Shown piece by piece: positions 1 to 10,104 of a stretch of DNA of 10,104 bases (position 1 is its first letter; each line of letters begins with the position of its first letter). A program made the position numbers and the translations under genes. The notes beneath the pieces are model-generated. The model searched no databases. It saw only the letters and a list, made by a program, of their open reading frames with translations, and had not been told where the DNA came from. The DNA is taken from positions 1 through 10,104 of the IMG/VR virus record IMGVR_UViG_2728369184_000010; one strand, 5' to 3'. Source of the stretch: a virus. Lineage: Duplodnaviria; Heunggongvirae; Uroviricota; Caudoviricetes.

Positions 1-279
1 ATGGCTGCGCTTGGGCAGTCAATCGGTGGTATATTTCCTTCTGATGAAATAGTCAAAGGCTCTATTAGCGGATATGTCTTCGAGCAATTTGAAATCGCCT
101 GTTACACCTCACTCTTAGCAGCAGCAAAAAATGCCGGTGATACAGCTTCAATTCCAACCATCGAAGCGATTTTAAATGAGGAAAAGCAAATGGCCGACTG
201 GCTGATTCAGCATATTCCGCAAACAACTGAGAAATTTTTAATTCGCTCTGAAACTGATGGCGTAGAAGCGAAGAAATAA
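1..279 (+). CDS. yciE: 3' part of a host gene for a YciE-like (DUF892, ferritin-like) protein; the 5' end lies outside the window
   Basis: Frame is open from base 1 to TAA at 277-279. The translation (...MAALGQSIGGIFPSDEIVKGSISGYVFEQFEIACYTSLLAAAKNAGD...) matches my recollection of the YciE C-terminus. It lies convergent to an ompW 3' remnant, as ompW and yciE do in E. coli K-12. The initial Met is probably internal. Confidence 0.55.
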   Translation: MAALGQSIGGIFPSDEIVKGSISGYVFEQFEIACYTSLLAAAKNAGDTASIPTIEAILNEEKQMADWLIQHIPQTTEKFLIRSETDGVEAKK

Positions 280-302
280 TACCCTTTATACCATGTCCTT
301 AT

Positions 303-330
303 TGACCCCGTATATTACGGGGTCGTTTTT
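303..330. terminator. Terminator hairpin between the convergent yciE and ompW 3' ends, probably bidirectional
   Basis: Perfect 9-bp stem GACCCCGTA / TACGGGGTC with a 3-nt loop, followed by GTTTTT on the + strand and preceded by an A-run on the other side. It sits 24 nt after the yciE stop. Confidence 0.6.
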
Positions 331-338
331 GTGCGGAA

Positions 339-455
339 TTAAAAACGATATCCTGCTGAGAACATAAACACCCACGGATCGAGGCGTACGCTATCGTGTT
401 GCTGTGCACCGCCCAGTTTATAATTGGCGGTGGTATCGATATCCATGTACCACAC
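339..455 (-). pseudogene. ompW: Promoterless 3' fragment of ompW (last ~38 codons), displaced by prophage integration
   Basis: Hand translation of the - strand gives VWYMDIDTTANYKLGGAQQHDSVRLDPWVFMFSAGYRF followed by TAA (stop at + 339-341), which matches the OmpW C-terminus as I recall it. There is an in-frame stop just upstream at 465-467 and no start codon, and similarity to OmpW is lost upstream of about 455-465. It is absent from the supplied ORF track because it has no start. Confidence 0.75.
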
Positions 456-465
456 TGGTAGGTTT

Positions 466-626
466 CAAAAAACACAATAACCAATTGTATTTGAAGCAAA
501 AAACAAGACTTTGAGATGCTTTTTTGTACCTTTTTTTTATGTTTTTAACTGTCTGATTTTATTGAAATCTTTTTTAGTTTTGCAGAAGGGATTTTTTACT
601 TGATTGTAACTTTTTCGTTTTTTTGG
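466..626. other. AT-rich, T-tract-rich non-coding segment at the host/prophage boundary; candidate phage arm of the attachment site
   Basis: Many T5-T8 runs between 520 and 624 and no plausible ORF. It sits immediately next to the point where ompW similarity ends. Lambda-type att arms are AT-rich and carry IHF and Int arm sites, but I could not pick out individual sites by eye. Confidence 0.35.
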
Positions 627-663
627 GGCTAATTGACGCGCAATGCTGGGCGGGGAGCGCACA
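627..663. repeat. Copy A of a 37-bp direct repeat (GGCTAATTGACGCGCAATGCTGGGCGGGGAGCGCACA); the second copy is at 2456-2492
   Basis: Hand alignment: 18 identical bases, a 5-nt block with 2 mismatches, then 14 identical bases. Weaker similarity continues about 28 bp further (about 17 of 28). Both copies follow a T-rich run. Confidence 0.8.
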
Positions 664-767
664 GCCAAAAAAACCGAAATTGACCGCTAATTACTGCCAA
701 TCATCATCGCTCTGATTGAGCGTAAATCATTCAGGTTATTCAGTTCTTCCTTCTGCTCTCGCTGACG

Positions 768-938
768 TCAATAAATCCCATCATTGCGATCAACCTCATC
801 CTTAACCATTGATGCGAGCAGTTCTTCCAGTTTCTGCGCTGACAGCTTTACCTGGTGATCTTCAGCATCTTCCCGGGCTATTGTGGTTCGCGCAGTGGCT
901 GATTTTGCTGACATCACCACAGGGGGCAGACGGACCAT
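768..938 (-). CDS. Small hypothetical protein (56 aa from the internal ATG at 936-938), immediately downstream of the tfa-like gene
   Basis: The ORF-track entry 768-1049 starts at a TTG that lies inside the duplicated tfa-downstream hairpin region. The internal ATG at 936-938 is preceded by GGAGG about 10 nt upstream. The predicted protein is charged and helical (MVRLPPVVMSAKSATARTTIAREDAEDHQVKLSAQKLEELLASMVKDEVDRNDGIY) and I do not recognise it. Confidence 0.3.
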   Translation of the reverse strand: MVRLPPVVMSAKSATARTTIAREDAEDHQVKLSAQKLEELLASMVKDEVDRNDGIY

Positions 939-1000
939 TGAACCAGGGCCTCCGGAACAAATAAGGGCAAAAATAACAACCACTATCGAAAGCTCACAAA

Positions 1001-1172
1001 CTAACCGCAGCACGTTCCTGCATACGACGTGTCTGCGGCATAATCCCAATGATTACTCCCTGACAGGATTTGCAGGCCACTCAATATCAGGTGCAGTTGA
1101 TGTATCAACACGATTCAACAATACCCGATATTTATTCCATGCCTCCAGCAACGATCTTTCTTCCTCCGTTGC
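1001..1172. repeat. Copy 1 of a ~172-bp direct repeat covering the 3' end of tfa plus its downstream hairpin; copy 2 is at 2051-2221
   Basis: Hand alignment of 1001-1172 against 2051-2221 gives roughly 90% identity with one 1-nt indel. The plus-strand shadow ORFs 883-1233 and 2079-2456 share the same peptide ([27 protein letters not shown]). Confidence 0.8.
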
Positions 1173-1322
1173 GATTTCCAGATCTACAGCATCCTGCAGT
1201 GGCGCAATATACTCACTGAATTCCTGGATGTAGAACTGTGTGGTGACGGTCTTCCAGCCATTCGGCTCCTGCTGTATCGAAGCATACCAGGCTATTTCAA
1301 TATCGCTATGCTGCGGCAGCAT
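1053..1322 (-). CDS. tfa: Short tail-fibre-assembly-like protein (89 aa): lambda Tfa C-terminal domain preceded by an unrelated short N-terminus
   Basis: The C-terminal ~50 aa ([51 protein letters not shown]) are near-identical to the lambda Tfa C-terminus as I recall it. The N-terminal ~35 aa have no lambda counterpart. The ATG is at 1320-1322 and the TAA at 1053-1055. Lambda Tfa is about 194 aa, so this is a truncated or chimeric version. Confidence 0.7.
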
Positions 1323-1330
1323 TTAACCCC

Positions 1331-1359
1331 TTGTAATTCATCGCCATAATTGATTTAAT
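1331..1359 (+). promoter_or_regulatory. Candidate sigma-70 promoter for the methyltransferase gene (-35 TTGTAA, 17-nt spacer, -10 TTTAAT)
   Basis: Hexamers read by eye in the 56-bp AT-rich divergent intergenic region between tfa-like (-) and the methyltransferase (+). There is no experimental support, and AT-rich DNA gives many near-matches. Confidence 0.3.
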
Positions 1360-1378
1360 TCACAAATAAAACTATAAC

Positions 1379-2047
1379 ATGGTGAAATTAATGAAAAAAA
1401 ACACAGATGATGGGGCTAAAATTTACACACCACTTACCCTAAAGCTTTATGACTGGTGGGTTTTGGGAGTATCAAATCGGCTTGCATGGGGATGTCCTAC
1501 AAAGGAACACCTTCTTCCACACTTTCTGGAACATTTAGGTAACAACCATCTGGATATTGGTGTTGGAACTGGGTTTTACCTTACTCACGTACCTGAGAGT
1601 AGTCTGATATCTTTAATGGATTTGAACGAAGCTAGCCTGAACGCGGCATCTACAAGGGCTGGGGAATCAAAAATTAAACATAAAATTAGCCATGATGTTT
1701 TTGAACCTTATCCCGCGACGTTACATGGTCAATTTGATTCCATTTCCATGTTTTACCTTCTTCACTGCCTGCCTGGAAATATATCTACAAAAAGCTGTGT
1801 AATACGCAATGCGGCGCAGGCCTTAACTGACGATGGAACTCTATACGGAGCCACAATTCTTGGCGATGGAGTTGTGCACAATAGCTTCGGTCAAAAACTG
1901 ATGCGCATTTACAATCAGAAAGGCATCTTTTCAAACACAAAAGATTCCGAAGAAGGCTTAACACATATACTCTCAGAGCATTTCGAGAATGTTAAAACCA
2001 AGGTTCAAGGTACTGTAGTAATGTTTTCCGCTTCAGGGAAAAAATAG
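1379..2047 (+). CDS. Class I (Rossmann-fold) SAM-dependent methyltransferase, substrate unknown; accessory (moron) gene on the strand opposite to the phage late genes
   Basis: 222-aa ORF with a glycine-rich SAM motif I (HLDIGVGTGFYL), an acidic post-I motif (SLMDLNEAS) and a hydrophobic motif III-like stretch (FDSISMFYLLHCLP). No DPPY/NPPY or PCQ motif typical of DNA methyltransferases. Composition is AT-richer than flanking phage genes (by eye ~40% GC versus over 50%). An alternative start at ATG 1391 (MKKNTDD) has a slightly better upstream GGTG. Confidence 0.75.
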   Translation: MVKLMKKNTDDGAKIYTPLTLKLYDWWVLGVSNRLAWGCPTKEHLLPHFLEHLGNNHLDIGVGTGFYLTHVPESSLISLMDLNEASLNAASTRAGESKIKHKISHDVFEPYPATLHGQFDSISMFYLLHCLPGNISTKSCVIRNAAQALTDDGTLYGATILGDGVVHNSFGQKLMRIYNQKGIFSNTKDSEEGLTHILSEHFENVKTKVQGTVVMFSASGKK

Positions 2048-2050
2048 CAT

Positions 2051-2221
2051 CCAACCGCAGCACGTTCTTGCTTAAGACGTGCTGCGGCATAATCCCAATG
2101 ATTACTCCCTGACAGGGTTCACAGGCCACTCAATATCAGGTGCAGTTGATGTATCAACACGGTTCAGCAACACCCGATACTTTTTCCAGGCTTCCAGCAA
2201 CGAGGTTTCTTCCTCCGTTGC
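2051..2221. repeat. Copy 2 of the ~172-bp tfa 3'-end direct repeat
   Basis: See copy 1 at 1001-1172. This copy begins 4 nt after the methyltransferase stop codon. Confidence 0.8.
2055..2087. terminator. Conserved hairpin downstream of the tfa 3' segments, abutting the methyltransferase stop; possible terminator
   Basis: Perfect 11-bp stem CCGCAGCACGT / ACGTGCTGCGG with an 11-nt loop. The paralogous copy at about 1005-1040 is imperfect (1-nt insertion). There is no U-run directly after the stem on either strand; on the - strand TTTTTT follows after 10 nt. Terminator function is therefore uncertain. Confidence 0.35.
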
Positions 2222-2230
2222 ATATACAGC
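2102..2230 (-). pseudogene. tfa: 3' remnant of a second tfa gene (last ~42 codons, no start codon)
   Basis: Hand translation of the - strand gives [42 protein letters not shown] followed by TAA (stop at + 2102-2104). An in-frame TGA lies immediately upstream and there is no ATG. It matches the lambda Tfa C-terminus. Confidence 0.6.
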
Positions 2231-2240
2231 TCACCTTTTT

Positions 2241-2381
2241 TCACCCACGATTAACCAACAGCCAGACCAGCAGACACGCCACCACCGGCACAGCAAAATC
2301 CATCAGGCTTGCCACATCCCACGCGCGCGGATCAAAACCGCCCCACCACGGCATATTCATTCGCTTGCCATGTCCGAACAT
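2241..2381 (-). CDS. Possible small membrane protein (46 aa), below the ORF-track length cut-off
   Basis: ATG at 2379-2381 and TGA at 2241-2243. The translation MFGHGKRMNMPWWGGFDPRAWDVASLMDFAVPVVACLLVWLLVNRG has a C-terminal hydrophobic stretch compatible with one transmembrane helix. The RBS is weak and the region is GC-rich with open frames on several phases, so this may be spurious. Confidence 0.2.
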   Translation of the reverse strand: MFGHGKRMNMPWWGGFDPRAWDVASLMDFAVPVVACLLVWLLVNRG

Positions 2382-2455
2382 TTCAATCCAGCGATATTAT
2401 GCCTGGGGTGTTCAAGCGCAATGAAGTACGTATTGTATCTTCGCGATTTTTTATA

Positions 2456-2492
2456 GGCTAATTGACGCGCAATTCTGAGCGGGGAGCGCACA
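2456..2492. repeat. Copy B of the 37-bp direct repeat (GGCTAATTGACGCGCAATTCTGAGCGGGGAGCGCACA), about 65 bp downstream of the stf-like stop
   Basis: See copy A at 627-663. Confidence 0.8.
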
Positions 2493-2557
2493 ATCAAACA
2501 GCACAGAATGGATCGCTGATATTTATCCTTTTGTCGGTTTATCAAACAACAAGAGAG

Positions 2558-4387
2558 TCAATAGCGGATTGTCCCTACATCCATTTCTGGCGAATCCACT
2601 AACCAGAAATTATCTGGCTTTACAGCCAGAATGATCCAGGCAGTGTTTGTTGTTGATGGCCAGGAAGGCAGCACATCGTATGCCAGGTTATCGCAAGAAT
2701 CACGATAACCGTACTCATTAAAAAGTGGAGCCATTGCTGCCACAAGATTCACCGCATTCAGCTCATTACCCAGCTTGCGCTCAAAAAGTGCCACACCTGC
2801 CGTTCCTTCCACCCACACGCCACGGCTGTGACCACTATAACCATAATCAGGGTGGTACGGTGTGTAACCCGTGGTTTCCCTCGTACCAAATAAAAAACGC
2901 CCCATATATTTTCGGCACTTAGCCGCTTTCTCAGCATCAATATTGGCAACAAACAATCCGCCCCAGGAAGACTGATCCAGCGCCGCTGCGTTGTCATAGT
3001 GGGTTGAATGAACCCCCTGTCGAAATCGGCCTTCATCTTCCACCCACAGACCTCTGATGATACTCTTTGCCAGCCTGTCAGCCCGCTCACTGAAACCGTC
3101 AAATCCCAGCCGTCCCATCAGTTCAAACAAAAACCAGATATCAACGTTATGCTCCAGTGCGCACCATTCGGCGACGAAAGTTTCATCAAAATTGCCGTCC
3201 ACATAACGCCCCTGCCCCCCTTTATACAGGCCTTCACGCAGGTCGCCTGGTGTGCTCACCAGAAAAGTATCCAGCCAGGCAATGCCTGCCAATAGCTTTT
3301 CTCTGACCCGCGCAGTCTGAGTACCGTCCGGATACTTCTCCAGATAGAAAGCAAGAGCATAATAAACCCATGCCGCATTGCCCAAGCGGTAATAGGTACG
3401 CGGTGACATGGCAGACAGCCTGTTAACAAAAAACTTTACTCCACCGTTTTCATCAACAAGCGCACACAAGCCCGCAACGTATCTTTCTACAGCCTCATGT
3501 CGCTGAACCATCAACGCCAGTGCTGCCAGCGCCTGGTCATACGTGTAACACCGATCTTTCATCACCCTGATCACTTCGGGGTCTGCGTCCTCCGGCATCC
3601 AGTAGCTACGAATGAGCAGTGGAAACTCCAGCGTTGTGATCCACGCATTATCCTCAATCCGAATAAGACGAAACTGTTTTGCTCCCGTCCAGCAACGTCT
3701 GAAATAGAAAGTTCCGTCACTATTCAAATTAGCGTCGCCGTTAAAATACTCTCCGGTTGTATAAGCATACATTTCGACTTTATACTTTTCTGGTTCAGAA
3801 ATATCGCAATATCCGTTAACTGCACCGACATAATTAAAATCGATATTTTCTTTTATTTTTAAAGATATTGATGTATCAACAACCTCGGGTTGTTCCAGTT
3901 TTAACATTGCAGTAGTGCAACGACTCACGATGTCGTCAAAGTTCTCAAAGCGCAAACCGGGAAAACTATCGGCTATTCCCTGCATTTCAGACAGTAACGC
4001 TTCTGCCCTTTTTGTCGCTGATATTGCCACATCTGCACTTCGTCGCGCCTGACTTGTCAAATCTTCAAATCGTTTCACCACATCTGGCTTCAGGTCGCCT
4101 TCGTCGGGGGCAGTCAGAAAATCATTCAGCGTACCTGGTCTGGAACCTTCATAAACGGTAATGGTCCCGGCATGTGAAGGCGGAAAACCTTCAACCAGCA
4201 GGGTGACGCTGTACTGACCATACTCAACATCCATGCTGTAACGTCCAGCTTCATCCGGATTTTCTGAGGCCACCGTGTTCACCACAACCGTTGTGCTGTT
4301 ACGTTTTGCCTTCAGTTGAATAGTGCAGTTCTGTATTGGTTTTCCCGCACCATCTTTCAGCACACCTGAGATTTTTACTGCTGCCAT
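2558..4387 (-). CDS. stf: Side-tail-fibre-like protein: lambda Stf N-terminal tail-attachment domain fused to a divergent ~520-aa C-terminal globular domain (putative receptor-binding or polysaccharide-degrading module)
   Basis: The N-terminal ~90 aa (MAAVKISGVLKDGAGKPIQNCTIQLKAKRNSTTVVVNT...GTITVYEGSRPGTLNDFL) closely match the lambda Stf N-terminus as I recall it. The rest lacks the Ala/Ser/Thr-rich fibre repeats of lambda Stf and is instead rich in aromatic, helix-like segments (TYDQALAALALMV, NAAWVYYALAFYLEKY, WCALEHNVDIWFLFELMGRLG, DNAAALDQSSWGGLF). The position after lom matches lambda stf. The ORF-track start is a GTG at 4393; the ATG at 4385-4387 is preceded by GGGGTGGA and aligns with the lambda start. 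Confidence 0.8.
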   Translation of the reverse strand: MAAVKISGVLKDGAGKPIQNCTIQLKAKRNSTTVVVNTVASENPDEAGRYSMDVEYGQYSVTLLVEGFPPSHAGTITVYEGSRPGTLNDFLTAPDEGDLKPDVVKRFEDLTSQARRSADVAISATKRAEALLSEMQGIADSFPGLRFENFDDIVSRCTTAMLKLEQPEVVDTSISLKIKENIDFNYVGAVNGYCDISEPEKYKVEMYAYTTGEYFNGDANLNSDGTFYFRRCWTGAKQFRLIRIEDNAWITTLEFPLLIRSYWMPEDADPEVIRVMKDRCYTYDQALAALALMVQRHEAVERYVAGLCALVDENGGVKFFVNRLSAMSPRTYYRLGNAAWVYYALAFYLEKYPDGTQTARVREKLLAGIAWLDTFLVSTPGDLREGLYKGGQGRYVDGNFDETFVAEWCALEHNVDIWFLFELMGRLGFDGFSERADRLAKSIIRGLWVEDEGRFRQGVHSTHYDNAAALDQSSWGGLFVANIDAEKAAKCRKYMGRFLFGTRETTGYTPYHPDYGYSGHSRGVWVEGTAGVALFERKLGNELNAVNLVAAMAPLFNEYGYRDSCDNLAYDVLPSWPSTTNTAWIILAVKPDNFWLVDSPEMDVGTIRY

Positions 4388-4397
4388 ATCCACCCCA

Positions 4398-4425
4398 CAA
4401 AAAAGCCCGCCAGAATATGCGGGCT
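4398..4425 (-). terminator. Rho-independent terminator downstream of lom, between lom and the stf-like gene
   Basis: On the - strand: 7-bp GC-rich stem AGCCCGC / GCGGGCT with an 8-nt loop, followed directly by TTTTTT, starting about 16 nt after the lom stop. Confidence 0.55.
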
Positions 4426-4441
4426 GTCATAACACTGCTAA

Positions 4442-5041
4442 TCAGAATTTATAACCGACACCCACGATAAAACCGTCAGTGCGCCAGTCACCACTGCCGG
4501 AGCCTTCATAAGCAATATCAATGGCCACGGATTCGGTCGGGTTAAACTGCACGCCAGCCCCCCACGCCAGAGACGTGTTACTGTGGCGACCATCATCACT
4601 TGCGGTCAGCACATCGTGCGTTTTCCCCTTGTTGTCAGTTACGCGGAGATAATCCCCGGAGAAAGTCGAAACACGGCTGTAAGCCACACCCGCCATCGCA
4701 TATGCGCTGAACCACTCATTCACGCGCACAGATGGCCCCGCCATCATGCTGAACCAGCGGTTACGCACTGAATCTTCATGCCAGCGGGTATCACTGTAAC
4801 GGGTAATCTGGCGATTCTTGTCTCCAGCATAACTGAATGACGTCACCAGCCCCAGCGTGTCCGTAAATTCATAACGGTATTTCACGTTAATGCCCTTCAG
4901 GTCATCGTTGCCGGGCATATCAGTATGGGACTGAATATACCCGGAGCTTAGTGTGGACTGATGCTCTGCTGCACTCGCTGGCGTACCAGCGGCAACCAGC
5001 CAGACTACTGCGGACAGAATAACAGCACATAATTTACGCAT
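4442..5041 (-). CDS. lom: Lom/Ail/PagC-family outer-membrane beta-barrel protein
   Basis: 199-aa ORF with a signal peptide ([24 protein letters not shown]). The C-terminus [23 protein letters not shown] is identical to lambda Lom as I recall it. It sits immediately downstream of J as in lambda. The - strand has GAGAGG upstream of the ATG. Confidence 0.9.
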
Positions 5042-5065
5042 AATTACCTCTCGCTTTTCTGCAAT

Positions 5066-5089
5066 AAAAAAGGCGCCATTTCTGGCGCC
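5066..5089 (-). terminator. Rho-independent terminator between J and lom
   Basis: On the - strand: 7-bp stem GGCGCCA / TGGCGCC with a 4-nt loop, followed by TTTTTT. It lies in the 67-bp J-lom spacer. Confidence 0.6.
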
Positions 5090-5108
5090 CGTATCTGGGT
5101 TATAAAAT

Positions 5109-8100
5109 TCAGCTAATCGTGATGCCTGCAGTGGCTTTCTTCATCACCACAACCAGCAAATCGCTGATACTTGCTGTGGGATACCAACCATTTACCCACC
5201 ATGCTGATACAGAAAACTCCAGTGTCATTACGCCACTGCCTGCAGGCATATCAATAACACCCGTGTATATCAGCGTATTATCCAGAGCCGTTCGGTTATA
5301 AATTTCAGCCCCGTTTTTCTTCACTATCAGGCGGCATGACGAATAAGTATCGCTATTCTCCCGCTCATGTCTGGCACCGCTGAAAGCCACCGCAGGAATA
5401 ACAATTTGCCGGTCAAACGGCTGATCGTCATAAACCCTGACGGTAATGGTCCCTGATGGCCACCGCTCCGGTGCACGGGAGTCCCGGGGGAAAGCTTTGC
5501 CCACTGTTTTAACGAGATCGCCTTCAATCTGGTTCGCGGACAGTTTTCCCAGAACCCGACAGTTCTCGTTAATCGTGACGTTGTTGAGCGTCCCTGAATT
5601 TGCATTCACATTACCGCTGATATCCGCATTTTTAGCGGTCAGCTTTCCGTCCGGTGTCAGGGAAAATGCCGGCGGATTTCCACCGCTGGTAATGGTGGGA
5701 GCCGTCAGGCGTTTCAGGAACACGTCGTTCATGAATATCTGGTTGCCCTGCGCCACAAACATCGGCGTTTCATTCCCGTTTGCCGGGTCAATAAACGCGA
5801 TACGATTGGCGGCAACCAGAAACTGGCTCAGCTTGCCTTCCTCCGTGTCCTCCATGCTGAGGCCAATACCCGCGACATAATGTTTGCCGTCTTTGGTCTG
5901 CTCAATTTTGACGCCCCACATAGCATTCCATTTATCGTTAGCGTCCTTCCACTCTTTCGAAAACTCATCCAGTCTGCTGGCGTTATCCTCCGTCAGGTCG
6001 ACTTTTTTCAGCAGCTCTTTACCGAGATGGGATTCGGTTATCTTGCCTTTGAAAAAATCCAGGTAACCTTCCGCATCATCGCTCGCCCGACCGACGGCCT
6101 CCACGAATGCCGATTTGCCAACGGTGTTCACACTGCGGATATAAAAGTAATAATCATGGCCCGGTTTGATATTGATACTGGCGGCTATCCAGTACAGCCC
6201 CGTGCCAAGGTAGCGGGCTGTGGTTTCAACCTGCCTGATATCGGTAATCCGCGTTTCCGAGAACCAGAACTCAAACTGTACCGTCGGATCATAAACCGCA
6301 AGATGCGGCGTGGCAGTTATCTGAAAATAGCCCGGCGTCAGCTCAATCCGCGACGGCGCTGCCGGGGCGGCAATCCGGAACGATACCGATGCCGGATCGC
6401 CCTGCTGCCCCCAGGCATTTGCCGCCCGGACTGTCAGCCTGTAGTTTCCCAGCGCCAGTTGCGTGAAGCGGTATGTGGTTTCCGTCGTCCGGGCCGTGCT
6501 GACCAGCCGCTCACTGCCGTCATCCGCTGCCACGGTCAGGCGAAGCATAAAGCTCACACCCTTCACCACCTTCGGCGTATCCCAGCGCGCCAGCACCTGG
6601 TATTCCCCGCTGTCTGCGGTGACTTCGGCAGTCAGATGCTGCACTGCTGGCGGTGTGACCCCGTTCACCGTGCCGCTCTGGTCGCCGTCAAAGTGCGCCC
6701 CGTTATCCACGATGGCCTCTTTTTCCGGTACATGCTGCACGGCGGTGATGGCATACGTGCCGTTGTCGTTCTCACGGATACTCACGCAGCGGAACAGGCG
6801 CTGGCGCAGCGTCGGCAGCTTCAGCCCCCACACGCTGTATTCAGCAACGCCGTCAGGAACACGGCTCACTTTTACCTTCACGCCGTCGGTGACGGACTGG
6901 ATCTCCACGCTGACCGGATTGCCACTTCCGTCAACCAGGCTTATCAGCGTGGTACCGGAGGATGGCAGCGTGATTTCACGGTCGAGCGTCAGCGTCCGGG
7001 TCTGGCTGTTCACCGCCAGCACACGACCACCGGTGCTGATACCGGCATAGTCATCATCACAGATTTCAATGACATCGCCCGGCACATGGCGAAGCCCTTC
7101 GGCACCCACGCTGAAGTCCACGGTCTGCGTTTCCAGCAGTTCCGTTTTAATCAGCCACAGCCCGGCTCTGTGTGCCTGCCCCCGACTGGTACAGCCAAAA
7201 GCATCCATCTTCGTGACGTTACGACCGTAACGGGCAATGGCCTGCGTGTCCTCCACAAGCTCTGTCGCCGTCTCCCAGCCATTATTCGGGTCAATCCAGT
7301 TCACCTCAACGGCATTATGGCGGTCCTTCAGGGCGCTGAAGCTGTAGCGGAACGGCGCGCCATCATCCGGCATCACCACATTACTGCGGTTATAGGTCCA
7401 CACCTTATCCGACCGTCGGTCCTGCACGAACGTCAGCGTCTGCCCGTTCCATACCGGCATACAGCGCATCGCCGAGCAGAAATCACTGAGCACATCCCAC
7501 GCCTTGCGCTGCGTGGTCATGTACGCATTACAGGTGATGCGCGGCTCCGTGCCACCAAAGCCATCCGGCACCGACTGGTCGCAATTCTGGCCGATGACAT
7601 ACAGCGCCCATTTATCCACATCCGCCGCACCAAGACGTTTCCCCATGCCGTAGCGCGGATGGGTCAGCATATCCCACAGACACCAGGCCATGTTGTTGCT
7701 GTATGCTGGCTTAAACGTTCCGTCCCAGATACCGCTGTATTGCCGCGTCTGCGGGTTATAGTTCGACGGCACCTGCAGAATACGCCCGCGAAGATGATAA
7801 TTACGGCTCACCTGCTGACTGCCGAACTGTTCCGACTCCACCTGCACGCCGACCAGTGCCGTGTTCGGGTAGCACTGTTTCACATCGATGATTTCGGTGT
7901 ATGACGACCAGAGCGTTTTGTTCTGCAGCTGGTCTGTGGTGCTGTCCGGCGTCATCCTGCGCATCCGGATATTAAACGGGCGCGGCGGCAGGTTATCCAC
8001 CACTACCGATGCCAGATACTGCGAGGTGGTTTTGCCCTTAATGGTGATGTCTTTTTCCGTCACCCAGCCACCGTTACGTTGTATCTGAACCAGCAGGCGG

Positions 8101-8504
8101 ACTTCCGATGGATTCCGGTCCCCTTTTGAGGTGGTTTCCACCAGAGCCTGCACACCGAAGGTAAAACGCAGACGGTCGATGTTTGCAGACGTGATGGTCC
8201 GGATGATCGGCGTGTCGTATTTCACTTCCGTACCCAGCACCTTCTCGGAGCCGGAGGATTCAAATCCCTCCGGCGGAGTCTGCTCCTGCTCACCAGCCAG
8301 GAACACCACCGTGACACCGGCGATGTTGGTATTCCCCTCACTGTCCAGCACCGGCGTACTGTTCAGCAGCACGCTTTTTAATCCATCCACCGGACCTTCA
8401 ACCGGCCCTTCACTGATGGCATCAATCACACTCAGCAACTGCGTGGATTTCAGGTTGTCCTTCGCTTCGCGCGGGGTATGCCCCTTACTGCTGCCTTTAC
8501 CCAT
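5109..8504 (-). CDS. J: Tail tip / host-specificity protein J (central tail fibre); lambda-like except for the C-terminal ~140 aa
   Basis: 1131-aa ORF. The N-terminus [34 protein letters not shown]... and most of the length match lambda gpJ as I recall it. The - strand has GGAG upstream of the ATG. Gene order is L-K-I-J-lom. Confidence 0.95.
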
Positions 8505-8526
8505 TCGTCACGCTCCATAAACGACA

Positions 8527-8546
8527 AAACCGCCCGCAGGCGGTTT
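8527..8546 (-). other. Stem-loop in the I-J intergenic spacer
   Basis: 8-bp stem AAACCGCC / GGCGGTTT with loop CGCA (+ strand reading), followed on the - strand by a short T-rich run just upstream of the J ribosome-binding site. Confidence 0.3.
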
Positions 8547-8564
8547 CACATAAAATGTTTTGCA

Positions 8565-9197
8565 TCAGCGACCAATCACCACAACCTGACCACCATCCCC
8601 TTCGTCTGCCGTGCTGATCTCCTGAGAAACCACGCGAGACCCCACGCGCATTTCCCCGTACAGAACAGGCAGAACATTGCCCTGGGCAACCATGTTATCC
8701 AGTGAGGAGAAATAGGTGTTCTGCTTACCGTTATCCGTTGTCTGTGTACGGGGAGTTCTGGCTTTCGGTGCCAGCATCTGCGCCACANNNNNNNNNNNNN
8801 NNNNNNNNNNNGCTGCCCCCCATGCTGCAAGGGTGGCTCCGGCGGTAAAGAATGATCCGGCAATGGCGGCAGCCCCCAGGACAATCTGGAATACGCCACC
8901 TGACTTGGCCCCGGCGACTCTGGGAACAATATGAATCACAGCGCCATCAGGCAGAGTCTCATGTAACTGCGCCGTTAACCCGGACGTGCTGACGTCCCGC
9001 CCGGCAATCCGTACCTGATACCAGCCGTCGCTCAGTTTCTGACGAAACGCCGGGAGCTGTGTGGCCAGTGCCCGGATGGCTTCAGCCCCCGTTTTCACAC
9101 GAAGGTCGATGCGGCGACCAAATCGTTGTAAATCCCCGTAAAGGCAGATGCGCGCCATGCCCGGTGACGCCAGAGGGAGTGTGTGCGTCGCTGCCAT
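8565..9197 (-). CDS. I: Tail assembly protein I; coding sequence interrupted by a 24-N gap
   Basis: MAATHTLPLASPGMARICLYGDLQRFGRRIDLRVKTGAEAIRALATQ... matches lambda gpI. It overlaps the 3' end of K by 103 nt in another frame, as in lambda, and the 60-nt I-J spacer is lambda-like. The N-run falls in the Gly/Ala-rich region. Confidence 0.9.
   Translation of the reverse strand: MAATHTLPLASPGMARICLYGDLQRFGRRIDLRVKTGAEAIRALATQLPAFRQKLSDGWYQVRIAGRDVSTSGLTAQLHETLPDGAVIHIVPRVAGAKSGGVFQIVLGAAAIAGSFFTAGATLAAWGAXXXXXXXXXVAQMLAPKARTPRTQTTDNGKQNTYFSSLDNMVAQGNVLPVLYGEMRVGSRVVSQEISTADEGDGGQVVVIGR
8788..8811. other. Run of 24 N (assembly gap or masked bases) inside gene I
   Basis: Seen directly. Lambda gpI has about 22 residues where this window shows about 9 X, so the N-run probably under-represents the true length. 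Confidence 0.95.
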
Positions 9198-9838
9198 TTG
9201 TCGGTGTACCTCTCTCGTTTGCTCAGTTGTTCAGGAATATGGTGCAGCAGCTCGCCGTCGCCGCAGTAAATTGCGGCGTGATTCGGCACTGATGAACCAA
9301 AACAGCACAGCAGCACATCGCCCGGCTGTGCCGCTGACAACGGCACCTGATACAGCCCCGTCGCCTCCAGATTATCCAGATAGAGATTCTGGCCGTTACG
9401 CCACCAGTCATCCTCACGATAAAAGTCCGGCATCTCAATCCCCGCCAGATGATAAGCATCCCGGAACAGTGTGTAACAGTCCGTCACACCGTGCTCAAAG
9501 CGCCGCCCGGTGAGATGCGGCACACAGCGGAACTTATGAATCGTCCCCCGGCAGACCAGCCACCACGGCAAATCACTCTGCACCTGCAGCCGCCGGTCGG
9601 CCTCACTCAGCCAGGGCAGACCACCGGGGTGGCTGTGGACCAGCGCCACAATCTCACCCTGCATTTCTGCCTGCAGCCAGTCTTCCGGCGACATACGGAA
9701 ATACGCCTCCGGCTCACCGGAGATATTCACGCAGGGGAAATATCTTTCCCCCTCCGGCGTGCTTACCACGAAGCCGCACGACTCCGCTGGCGCACATCGC
9801 CGGGCGTGCGCCAGAATCGCTGATTCTGTCTGTGTCAT
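9095..9838 (-). CDS. K: Tail tip assembly protein K with an N-terminal MPN/JAMM motif and a C-terminal NlpC/P60-like Cys/His region
   Basis: 247-aa ORF starting 6 nt after the L stop. JAMM motif HSHPGGLPWLSEAD (H-x-H-x7-S-x2-D). NlpC/P60-like Cys (VTDCYTLF) and His residues (NHAAIYCG...LLHH). The classical lambda annotation may begin at the internal Met49 (MSPEDWLQ, about 199 aa), but the upstream segment is needed for a complete MPN domain. Confidence 0.9.
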   Translation of the reverse strand: MTQTESAILAHARRCAPAESCGFVVSTPEGERYFPCVNISGEPEAYFRMSPEDWLQAEMQGEIVALVHSHPGGLPWLSEADRRLQVQSDLPWWLVCRGTIHKFRCVPHLTGRRFEHGVTDCYTLFRDAYHLAGIEMPDFYREDDWWRNGQNLYLDNLEATGLYQVPLSAAQPGDVLLCCFGSSVPNHAAIYCGDGELLHHIPEQLSKRERYTDKWQRRTHSLWRHRAWRASAFTGIYNDLVAASTFV

Positions 9839-9843
9839 GGGAT

Positions 9844-10104
9844 TTACTGCGAAAGTTTGTTAATGGAAAGGAAGCCGCCAAAGTTGCCGACGTTATTGCG
9901 GAACTTACAACCGCTCAGGCATTTGCTGCATTTATCCTTCGTGATATCGGACGTTGGCTGGTCATATTCATCCGCGACAGCAGGACCGCTATAACCGCAC
10001 TCGTCACCGCGATAGGTCCAGGTGCAGGTGTTGGCCAGCATGATTCGTCCCGGAAAAACAGCGCCGTCCGTTTCCGTCGGCGTGGACAGTACAAAAGAGG
10101 CACT
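9844..10104 (-). CDS. L: Tail tip protein L, C-terminal part; the 5' end lies beyond the window
   Basis: Frame is open to the window edge and ends ...CSKCLSGCKFRNNVGNFGGFLSINKLSQ followed by TAA at 9844-9846. It sits immediately upstream of K as in lambda. The Cys-rich C-terminus is typical of gpL. Confidence 0.85.
   Translation of the reverse strand, partial: SASFVLSTPTETDGAVFPGRIMLANTCTWTYRGDECGYSGPAVADEYDQPTSDITKDKCSKCLSGCKFRNNVGNFGGFLSINKLSQ

Follow-up and report, generated by a model that had tools for sequence, protein, structure and literature searches.

The 10,104-nt stretch of DNA analyzed here, positions 1 to 10,104 of the virus record IMGVR_UViG_2728369184_000010 (hereafter the window), carries two copies of a 37-bp direct repeat beside the tail-fibre genes of a lambdoid prophage. 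The two copies most likely derive from the right end (attR) of a Mu-like transposable phage, of a family active in Escherichia coli to this day, and are themselves no longer functional. The feature would accordingly be a pair of relics of the Mu-type transposon end, a known type of element, and the family to which they belong seems not to have been characterised before. The window is 100% identical to a locus of E. coli MS 21-1 and contains yciE, a 3' fragment of ompW, and the tail end of a complete lambdoid prophage, the other end of which lies ~45 kb away and carries an intact ompW together with the genes for integrase and excisionase. Read along the minus strand, the prophage genes run in the order J, lom, stf (611 aa), the relic that we term A', a truncated small gene, a tfa fragment, and, on the opposite strand, a methyltransferase gene; a further tfa fragment, the remnant of a DUF4376 gene, the second relic (A), and 140 nt of AT-rich DNA complete the segment up to the att junction.

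The 37-mer GGCTAATTGACGCGCAATGCTGGGCGGGGAGCGCACA is located at positions 627-663 and recurs at 2456-2492 with two mismatches. The repeat seen in the initial annotation is thus real, with an identity of 35/37 instead of the 34/37 first given, and no chance match to the 37-mer arose in 200 dinucleotide shuffles. The similarity extends without gaps over 603-691 in the one copy and 2432-2520 in the other (75% over 89 nt); counted from a terminal TG dinucleotide, A (605-691, plus strand) and A' (2434-2520, plus strand) are 76-77% identical, and the core of 37 nt is better preserved than the parts that flank it. As had been described, 65 nt separate the end of the 2456-2492 copy from the stop codon of stf (2558-2560) and the first copy lies ~140 nt inward of the ompW att junction; between the copies, the remnant of the DUF4376 gene, one tfa fragment, the methyltransferase gene, the second tfa fragment, and the truncated small gene are all present. 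In a survey of 5426 complete E. coli genomes, the repeat was detected in 649, with a median of one copy and a maximum of four, which is not the pattern of a scattered element of the repetitive extragenic palindromic type. A phage tail-fibre region adjoins every copy for which the flanks were read.

The identity of the repeat follows from intact prophages that end in it. The sequence constitutes the last ~88 nt of Mu-like prophages situated in araJ (strain TUM9812), ypdF (Ec55), and fliH (OkiPb01703), the first of which was listed in full and the other two of which were examined at both end regions. The TUM9812 prophage (37.3 kb, compared with 35.8 kb for that of Ec55) encodes a repressor-like helix-turn-helix (HTH) protein, a transposase, an AAA ATPase, GemA, Mor, a gpT-type head protein, sheath and baseplate proteins, tail-fibre proteins, an stf-like protein with a PF08400 domain, and a DUF4376 protein, and the end regions of the Ec55 and OkiPb01703 prophages show the same arrangement of transposase, ATPase, and tail-fibre genes. 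Pfam searches identify HTH_Tnp_Mu_1 (the Mu DNA-binding domain), an rve core, and Mu-transpos_C in the TUM9812 transposase, as well as a TniB/AAA fold in the MuB-like ATPase, Mor, and phage_tail_N in the stf-like gene. No integrase is annotated in the full TUM9812 listing or in the left-end regions of the other intact Mu-like prophages. All three prophages have the termini 5'-TGTAAC...CCCCACA-3', with TGTAAC at the host junction, and all three are bounded by 4-bp target duplications (ATTT, AGCG, and ATTG), of which those in araJ and ypdF were checked against the uninterrupted K-12 genes.

In the live right end, ~88 nt lie between the terminal 5'-TG and the stop codon of the last gene, a tail-fibre gene. 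The motif TTCTGGGCG is found at position 18 from both termini of the element, and repeats of this type occupy positions 18, 40 (direct), and 67 (inverted) of the right end and positions 18, 92, and 143 of the left end. Judged by their sequence and position, these repeats are presumably transposase-binding sites. In its relatives, then, the window sequence is the terminus of a prophage with a MuA-type DDE transposase and a MuB-type ATPase, it belongs to an element with TG...CA termini and subterminal repeats common to both ends, it abuts a target duplication, and it occurs at many unrelated loci. In 46 genomes, at many different loci, a right end matches the live TUM9812 end with at least 90% identity, and the family is therefore considered active; the truncated host genes listed at such live-type junctions include eutC (in the enteropathogenic E. 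coli strain E2348/69), mhpT, and aslB. The transposase of the family is less than 50% identical to that of any phage in the phage collection. Strain TUM9812 holds two copies of the Mu-like prophage, with identical right ends.

Alignment of the two window copies with these live ends places their outer edges at the transposon terminus. Homology starts exactly at the TG, at position 605 in A and at 2434 in A', and over the terminal 88 nt A is 87% and A' 83-84% identical to the TUM9812 right end. Because A and A' share only 77% identity with each other but 87% and 83% with the live ends, the two copies are independent fossils. For A, the homology continues for 347 nt into the DUF4376 gene (window 604-950 against 496-839 of L009, 76% identity), which in the intact Mu-like prophage is the last gene, directly inside the right end. 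Among the flanks examined, at least six unrelated sequences join the same TG (TGTA), and three of them are lambdoid: the flank of A, the flank of A', and that of the SerU-LTIIb prophage near tRNA-Ser. Both fossils are right ends in direct orientation, each situated directly downstream of a tail-fibre-type gene.

Both fossils are also decayed. All three TTCTGGGCG-type repeats are mutated in each of them, the remnants being located at 622-630 (TTTGGGGCT), 644-652 (TGCTGGGCG), and 671-679 (AAACCGAAA, inverted) in A and at 2451-2459 (TTATAGGCT), 2473-2481 (TTCTGAGCG), and 2500-2508 (AGCACAGAA, inverted) in A'. The window contains no left-end sequence of a Mu-like element with which either right end could form the pair expected of a live element, and it encodes no transposase, so the window copies are relics.

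The junction of A' can be read against its uninterrupted target. A 97-aa gene (phrog_1443) that is truncated in the window is intact in strain EC931, and the alignment of the two breaks at 2432/2433; every sampled match to this gene elsewhere likewise stops at window position 2432 (2221 genomes match some part of the query). The A' junction is thus a comparison of an empty with a filled site, in which the break falls at the transposon terminus. The same junction is present in the complete Stx2k phage phiSTEC1575-Stx2k. Gene 81 of that phage (1717-2016 of its locus), annotated as a 99-aa 'hypothetical protein', is a chimeric open reading frame (ORF) in which the fossil end is read into the truncated 97-aa gene, the read-through standing in place of the real N-terminus of the 97-aa gene product, and one annotated hypothetical protein of an Stx2k phage is thereby explained. 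The equivalent chimeric ORF is frameshifted in the window, where the Prokaryotic Genome Annotation Pipeline (PGAP) lists it as a pseudogene (2241-2491).

The live family resembles Mu in the layout of its ends. The layout of the Mu ends, with the MuA-binding sites R1-R3 and L1-L3, was reportedly worked out by Craigie and colleagues in 1984. As in Mu, the E. coli family has 5'-TG...CA-3' termini and three subterminal repeats per end; those of the right end are closely spaced, the third in inverted orientation, and the tail-fibre region is located immediately inside that end. The element encodes a MuA-type transposase, a MuB-type ATPase, and Mor, and GemA is annotated. The 37-mer from which the analysis started is the stretch around the middle end repeat, at the position of R2. 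The first left-end repeat of the family is 74 nt from the second (start to start), which compares well with the 74-bp spacer between L1 and L2 of the Mu attL (PMC3820752). The family differs from Mu in its motif, TTCTGGGCG as opposed to the CGAAA-type consensus of Mu, and in a target duplication of 4 bp in 3/3 prophages as opposed to 5 bp; the window copies differ further in being decayed, unpaired right ends within a lambdoid prophage.

These observations suggest a model for how the fossils came to lie beside lambdoid tail-fibre genes. A Mu-like phage would first have transposed into the lambdoid region distal to the tail-fibre genes, its orientation matching that of the late genes, and homologous recombination between the PF08400 N-terminal domains of the two phages would then have deleted the intervening DNA. 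The outcome would be a hybrid lambdoid/Mu-like stf gene with the Mu-like right end behind it, and this end would be joined to the target DNA on the other side of the insertion. Two such events may have taken place: an older one that would have left the DUF4376 remnant and A beside the att-proximal flank, and a younger one that would have cut the 97-aa gene and left the 611-aa stf gene (stf-611) and A'. Both the transposition, directly into an ancestor of the lambdoid prophage, and the subsequent deletion are inferred. The model explains why the joints are exactly terminal, why the two fossils have the same orientation and lie just downstream of tail-fibre genes, and why the 5' part of the 97-aa gene is lost.

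Several observations support the model. Mu-like phages carry an stf-like gene with a PF08400 domain near the right end, the DNA of which is 79-86% identical to the N-termini of lambdoid stf genes (79% over window 4065-4163). The cassette in stf-611 is bounded downstream by the TG at 2434 and upstream by position 4115/4116, inside PF08400; with stf as query, 22 genomes cover at least 80% of the sequence, and the next-ranked lambdoid hits among the matches listed all start at window position 4116. A precedent for the first step is provided by strain 08-00022, in which a Mu-like prophage of the same family resides within an e14/lambdoid-type prophage and truncates an HTH gene in its early region. 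A second precedent is a different Mu-like phage annotated inside an Stx2c phage (LC727881, 35677-75644). Capture of a tail fibre by a lambdoid phage through Mu-like transposition is well supported as regards the junctions, and the deletion is the part that we infer.

Since both A and A' are right ends and point the same way, they do not delimit a mobile unit. The 1.8 kb between them is lambdoid distal DNA between two successive insertion points, together with older debris. The initial annotation had taken the repeat for a scar of recombination or insertion at a module boundary, and this part of its interpretation agrees with the junctions described above; a single event that delivered or duplicated the 1.8-kb segment does not, given that the copies are closer to the live ends (87% and 83%) than to each other (77%).

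The two junctions are distributed separately. Hundreds of genomes have A but lack A', and phiSTEC1575-Stx2k and a potB locus have A' but lack A. A query of A together with its flank was covered over at least 80% of its length in 571 genomes. One of the fossil junctions is present in ~11% of complete E. coli genomes, including listed O157, O111, O103, and O104 strains. A relative of flank plus A that is 77% identical is found in a prophage at prfC, and with this diverged copy at hand and no empty site found, the older junction is called old. In strain B1172 (NZ_CP120549.1), a double fossil that is 99.5% identical to window 280-2600 is accompanied by a live-type right end (96.5%) inside a gene for a flavin adenine dinucleotide (FAD)-dependent oxidoreductase; B1172 carries both types of end, so donor-type and fossil-bearing elements coexist.

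Searches for the donor of the younger event were made at three levels. A tblastn search of phages with stf-611 returned only phiSTEC1575 and a jumbo phage, with no Mu-like context; 35 E. coli genomes cover at least 80% of a query composed of the truncated 97-aa gene, A', and the 3' end of stf, none in a Mu-like context; and a scan of GTDB yielded one lambdoid Citrobacter locus, without a Mu-like end. A possible alternative cargo beside A', on the IMG/VR contig L031 (~283 onward), proved instead to be an insertion resembling the IS66 family. This element has a GTAAGCG... end and ORFs of 141, 116, and 537 aa, and it is inserted to the right of A', at a distance of a few bases.

Several points weigh against reading the two copies as transposon ends left by insertion into lambdoid phages. 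A single base, T2433, intervenes between the terminal TG and the point at which identity to the intact 97-aa gene ends, and the left halves of the elements are deleted, leaving no target duplication to check at A or A'. Binding of the repeats by the transposase is deduced from sequence and position only, and the target duplication of the live family is 4 bp long, compared with 5 bp in Mu. An empty target for the older junction was not found, the 465-604 flank always occurring with A in the sampled hits. No Mu-like prophage was found that carries the stf-611 C-terminal domain in its last gene, so the donor of the younger event is hypothetical.

The Mu-like ends could also have been acquired from a Mu-like prophage at another chromosomal site through recombination, without any transposition into a lambdoid phage, if the crossover was homologous in the tail-fibre gene and illegitimate on the other side. 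The 79-86% homology between the tail-fibre N-termini of the two phage types is in line with such a scenario, as is the presence of the double fossil and a live-type end together in B1172. An illegitimate crossover would not, however, hit the terminal TG in three independent lambdoid contexts, and the flank of A' is a lambdoid gene as opposed to chromosomal DNA from a Mu-like insertion site; we consider this route improbable. A further possibility concerns function more than origin, namely that the fossils are still used, either as a homology arm for repeated exchange of tail-fibre cassettes or as sites for the transposase or repressor of a co-resident Mu-like phage. Present use would be consistent with the better preservation of the 37-bp core (35/37) than of its flanks, with the coexistence of fossil-bearing and live elements in some genomes, and with the fact that the two phage types have in common PF08400 as well as the right end, the two arms that a double crossover requires. 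Set against this, all three repeats are mutated in both copies, the sole apparent alternative cargo beside A' is the IS66-like insertion on L031, and no exchange product was observed, and continued use of the fossils seems unlikely to us.

Two further proposals fare worse. One regarded the repeat as a conserved element at the end of the late operon, such as a terminator or 3' untranslated region common to lambdoid phages, and indeed both copies lie directly downstream of a tail-fibre-type gene on the late-gene strand. Yet a promoter and terminator scan detected no terminator-like site at either copy, the predicted folds on both strands (z-scores of -0.03 to -0.84) are no better than those of shuffled sequences, Rfam returned no match at E <= 1 at either copy, and most lambdoid prophages are without the repeat (649/5426 genomes). 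The proposal is refuted by the repeat being the physical terminus of transposase-encoding prophages, and we give it very little credence. The other would have the copies arise in situ, by duplication at insertion or by tandem duplication of the 1.8-kb segment, as might be suspected from their direct orientation and from their flanking the segment. The identity of 77% between copies, compared with 83-87% to external live ends, speaks against duplication, as do the unrelated outer flanks of A and A', and the separate distributions of the two fossils contradict it; an origin in this manner is highly improbable. The link to the att arm drawn in the initial annotation is likewise not sustained, as the same sequence ends transposase-carrying prophages in unrelated genes, with no integrase annotated in the regions examined. 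A lambda-type attP arm was rejected as well: A' lies 2 kb from the att core, and the sequence occurs beside differing att sites (ompW, tRNA-Ser, and prfC). Nor is the repeat explained by coding, since the ORFs that cross A (537-668) and A' (2357-2545) are alike only through the similarity of their DNA. Relics of the right end of a Mu-like phage thus remain the reading that we favor.

A Mu-like phage within a lambdoid one is not without parallel. The insert in LC727881 shows that a Mu-like prophage can sit inside a lambdoid Stx prophage, although its transposase is 44.5% identical to that of the window-related family and the insert is a whole prophage and not an 88-nt relic. Mosaicism of tail-fibre genes among lambda stf/tfa, Mu S/U, P1, P2, and e14 was reportedly described by Haggard-Ljungquist in 1992 and Sandmeier in 1994, who are said to have inferred exchange from homology of protein and DNA. 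The lambdoid stf described here is similar in that its distal parts and the downstream DUF4376 gene also occur in Mu-like phages. It differs in that the exchanged gene still has a transposon terminus next to it, an indication that delivery was by transposition. The 'boundary sequences' of lambdoid modules, said to have been proposed by Clark et al. in 2001 as sites of homologous exchange, are comparable as short conserved sequences at the junction of exchangeable modules; the window repeat, in contrast, derives from a transposon end, and a transposase made the joint at its outer edge. Mu-like prophages of E. coli such as Sp18 of strain Sakai and Phi804-3 are transposable and occupy strain-specific sites (PMC7430833). 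These, too, are present as whole prophages, in contrast to the 88-nt relic in the window.

While tail-fibre mosaics are known across lambda, Mu, P1, and P2, the physical movement of the pieces has mostly been deduced from homology. In the present case, a transposable phage has left its last base next to an exchanged tail-fibre gene, twice in the window prophage and once in an LT-II toxin prophage. The preserved termini point to a specific route that is open to testing, in which a phage transposes into a resident prophage and the DNA between homologous tail-fibre domains is then deleted. Whether Mu-like transposition plus deletion is a recurrent, general route of host-range exchange, with relic and PF08400 staying behind as what may be a two-armed homology cassette, is a tentative extension, built on at least three independent fossil junctions, that we view with some doubt. 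The analysis also flags an apparently undescribed, active Mu-like family of E. coli with 4-bp target duplications and the TTCTGGGCG end repeat; our literature search, the coverage of which was incomplete and does not prove novelty, did not turn up a paper describing the family, nor one reporting Mu-end relics in lambdoid prophages. Finally, the run of pseudogenes that separates stf from att is layered debris and not a mobile accessory island.

The remaining features of the segment can be placed within this framework. The host side of the lambdoid attR is the ompW 3' fragment (339-464, minus strand; PGAP annotation of the MS 21-1 locus). It is followed by AT-rich lambdoid DNA that extends from the att core to A (465-604), putatively a P arm or distal b region; this stretch has no homology to Mu-like prophages and is the target-side flank of the older insertion. 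A itself begins with the terminal TG at 605-606 and contains the 627-663 copy of the 37-mer. It adjoins the remnant of the DUF4376 tail-fibre gene (687-956, minus strand), a C-terminal part with an internal stop that PGAP lists as a pseudogene and that comes from the last gene of the Mu-like donor; the Pfam match to DUF4376 was found on an intact homologue of this remnant. Beyond it lies a C-terminal tfa fragment with its 3' flank (1003-1322, minus strand; ORF 1053-1322, Pfam Caudo_TAP, 6e-25), which forms copy 1 of a nested repeat, and the class I S-adenosylmethionine (SAM)-dependent methyltransferase gene (1379-2047, plus strand), a moron-like gene recognized by Pfam (Methyltransf_12 and others), phrog_2132, and PGAP. 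Copy 2 of the nested repeat comprises the second C-terminal tfa fragment (2102-2221) with its 3' flank (2053-2221, minus strand); the two tfa 3' fragments, 1003-1172 and 2053-2221, are direct repeats of 170 nt with 90% identity that flank the methyltransferase gene.

Next in order is the truncated 97-aa gene (2241-2432, minus strand), of which codons 35-97 are kept, with a frameshift, and then A', with its terminal TG at 2434-2435 and the 37-mer copy at 2456-2492. The side tail fibre gene stf (2558-4393, minus strand, 611 aa) matches Pfam phage_tail_N at residues 5-130. Its codons 1-93 encode the common lambdoid PF08400 N-terminus, and codons ~94-611 (2558-4115) form the rare C-terminal cassette linked to A'. 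Downstream of stf-611 there is no tfa chaperone gene, and the C-terminal domain of stf-611 is distantly related to minor tail proteins of Microbacterium and Thermus phages.

A weak Rfam match to Trp_leader between lom and stf (4397-4495, minus strand; 26.9 bits, E = 0.046) is probably due to chance. The Rfam family IS009 (RF02111) matches both tfa fragments on the minus strand below its gathering score, at 1096-1299 with 112.5 bits (gathering score, 117 bits) and at 2145-2243 with 71.6 bits, which suggests that this 'sRNA candidate' family (small RNA) is tfa-derived sequence. The block composed of the methyltransferase gene between the two tfa fragments also adjoins potB in strain F8111-1SC3.

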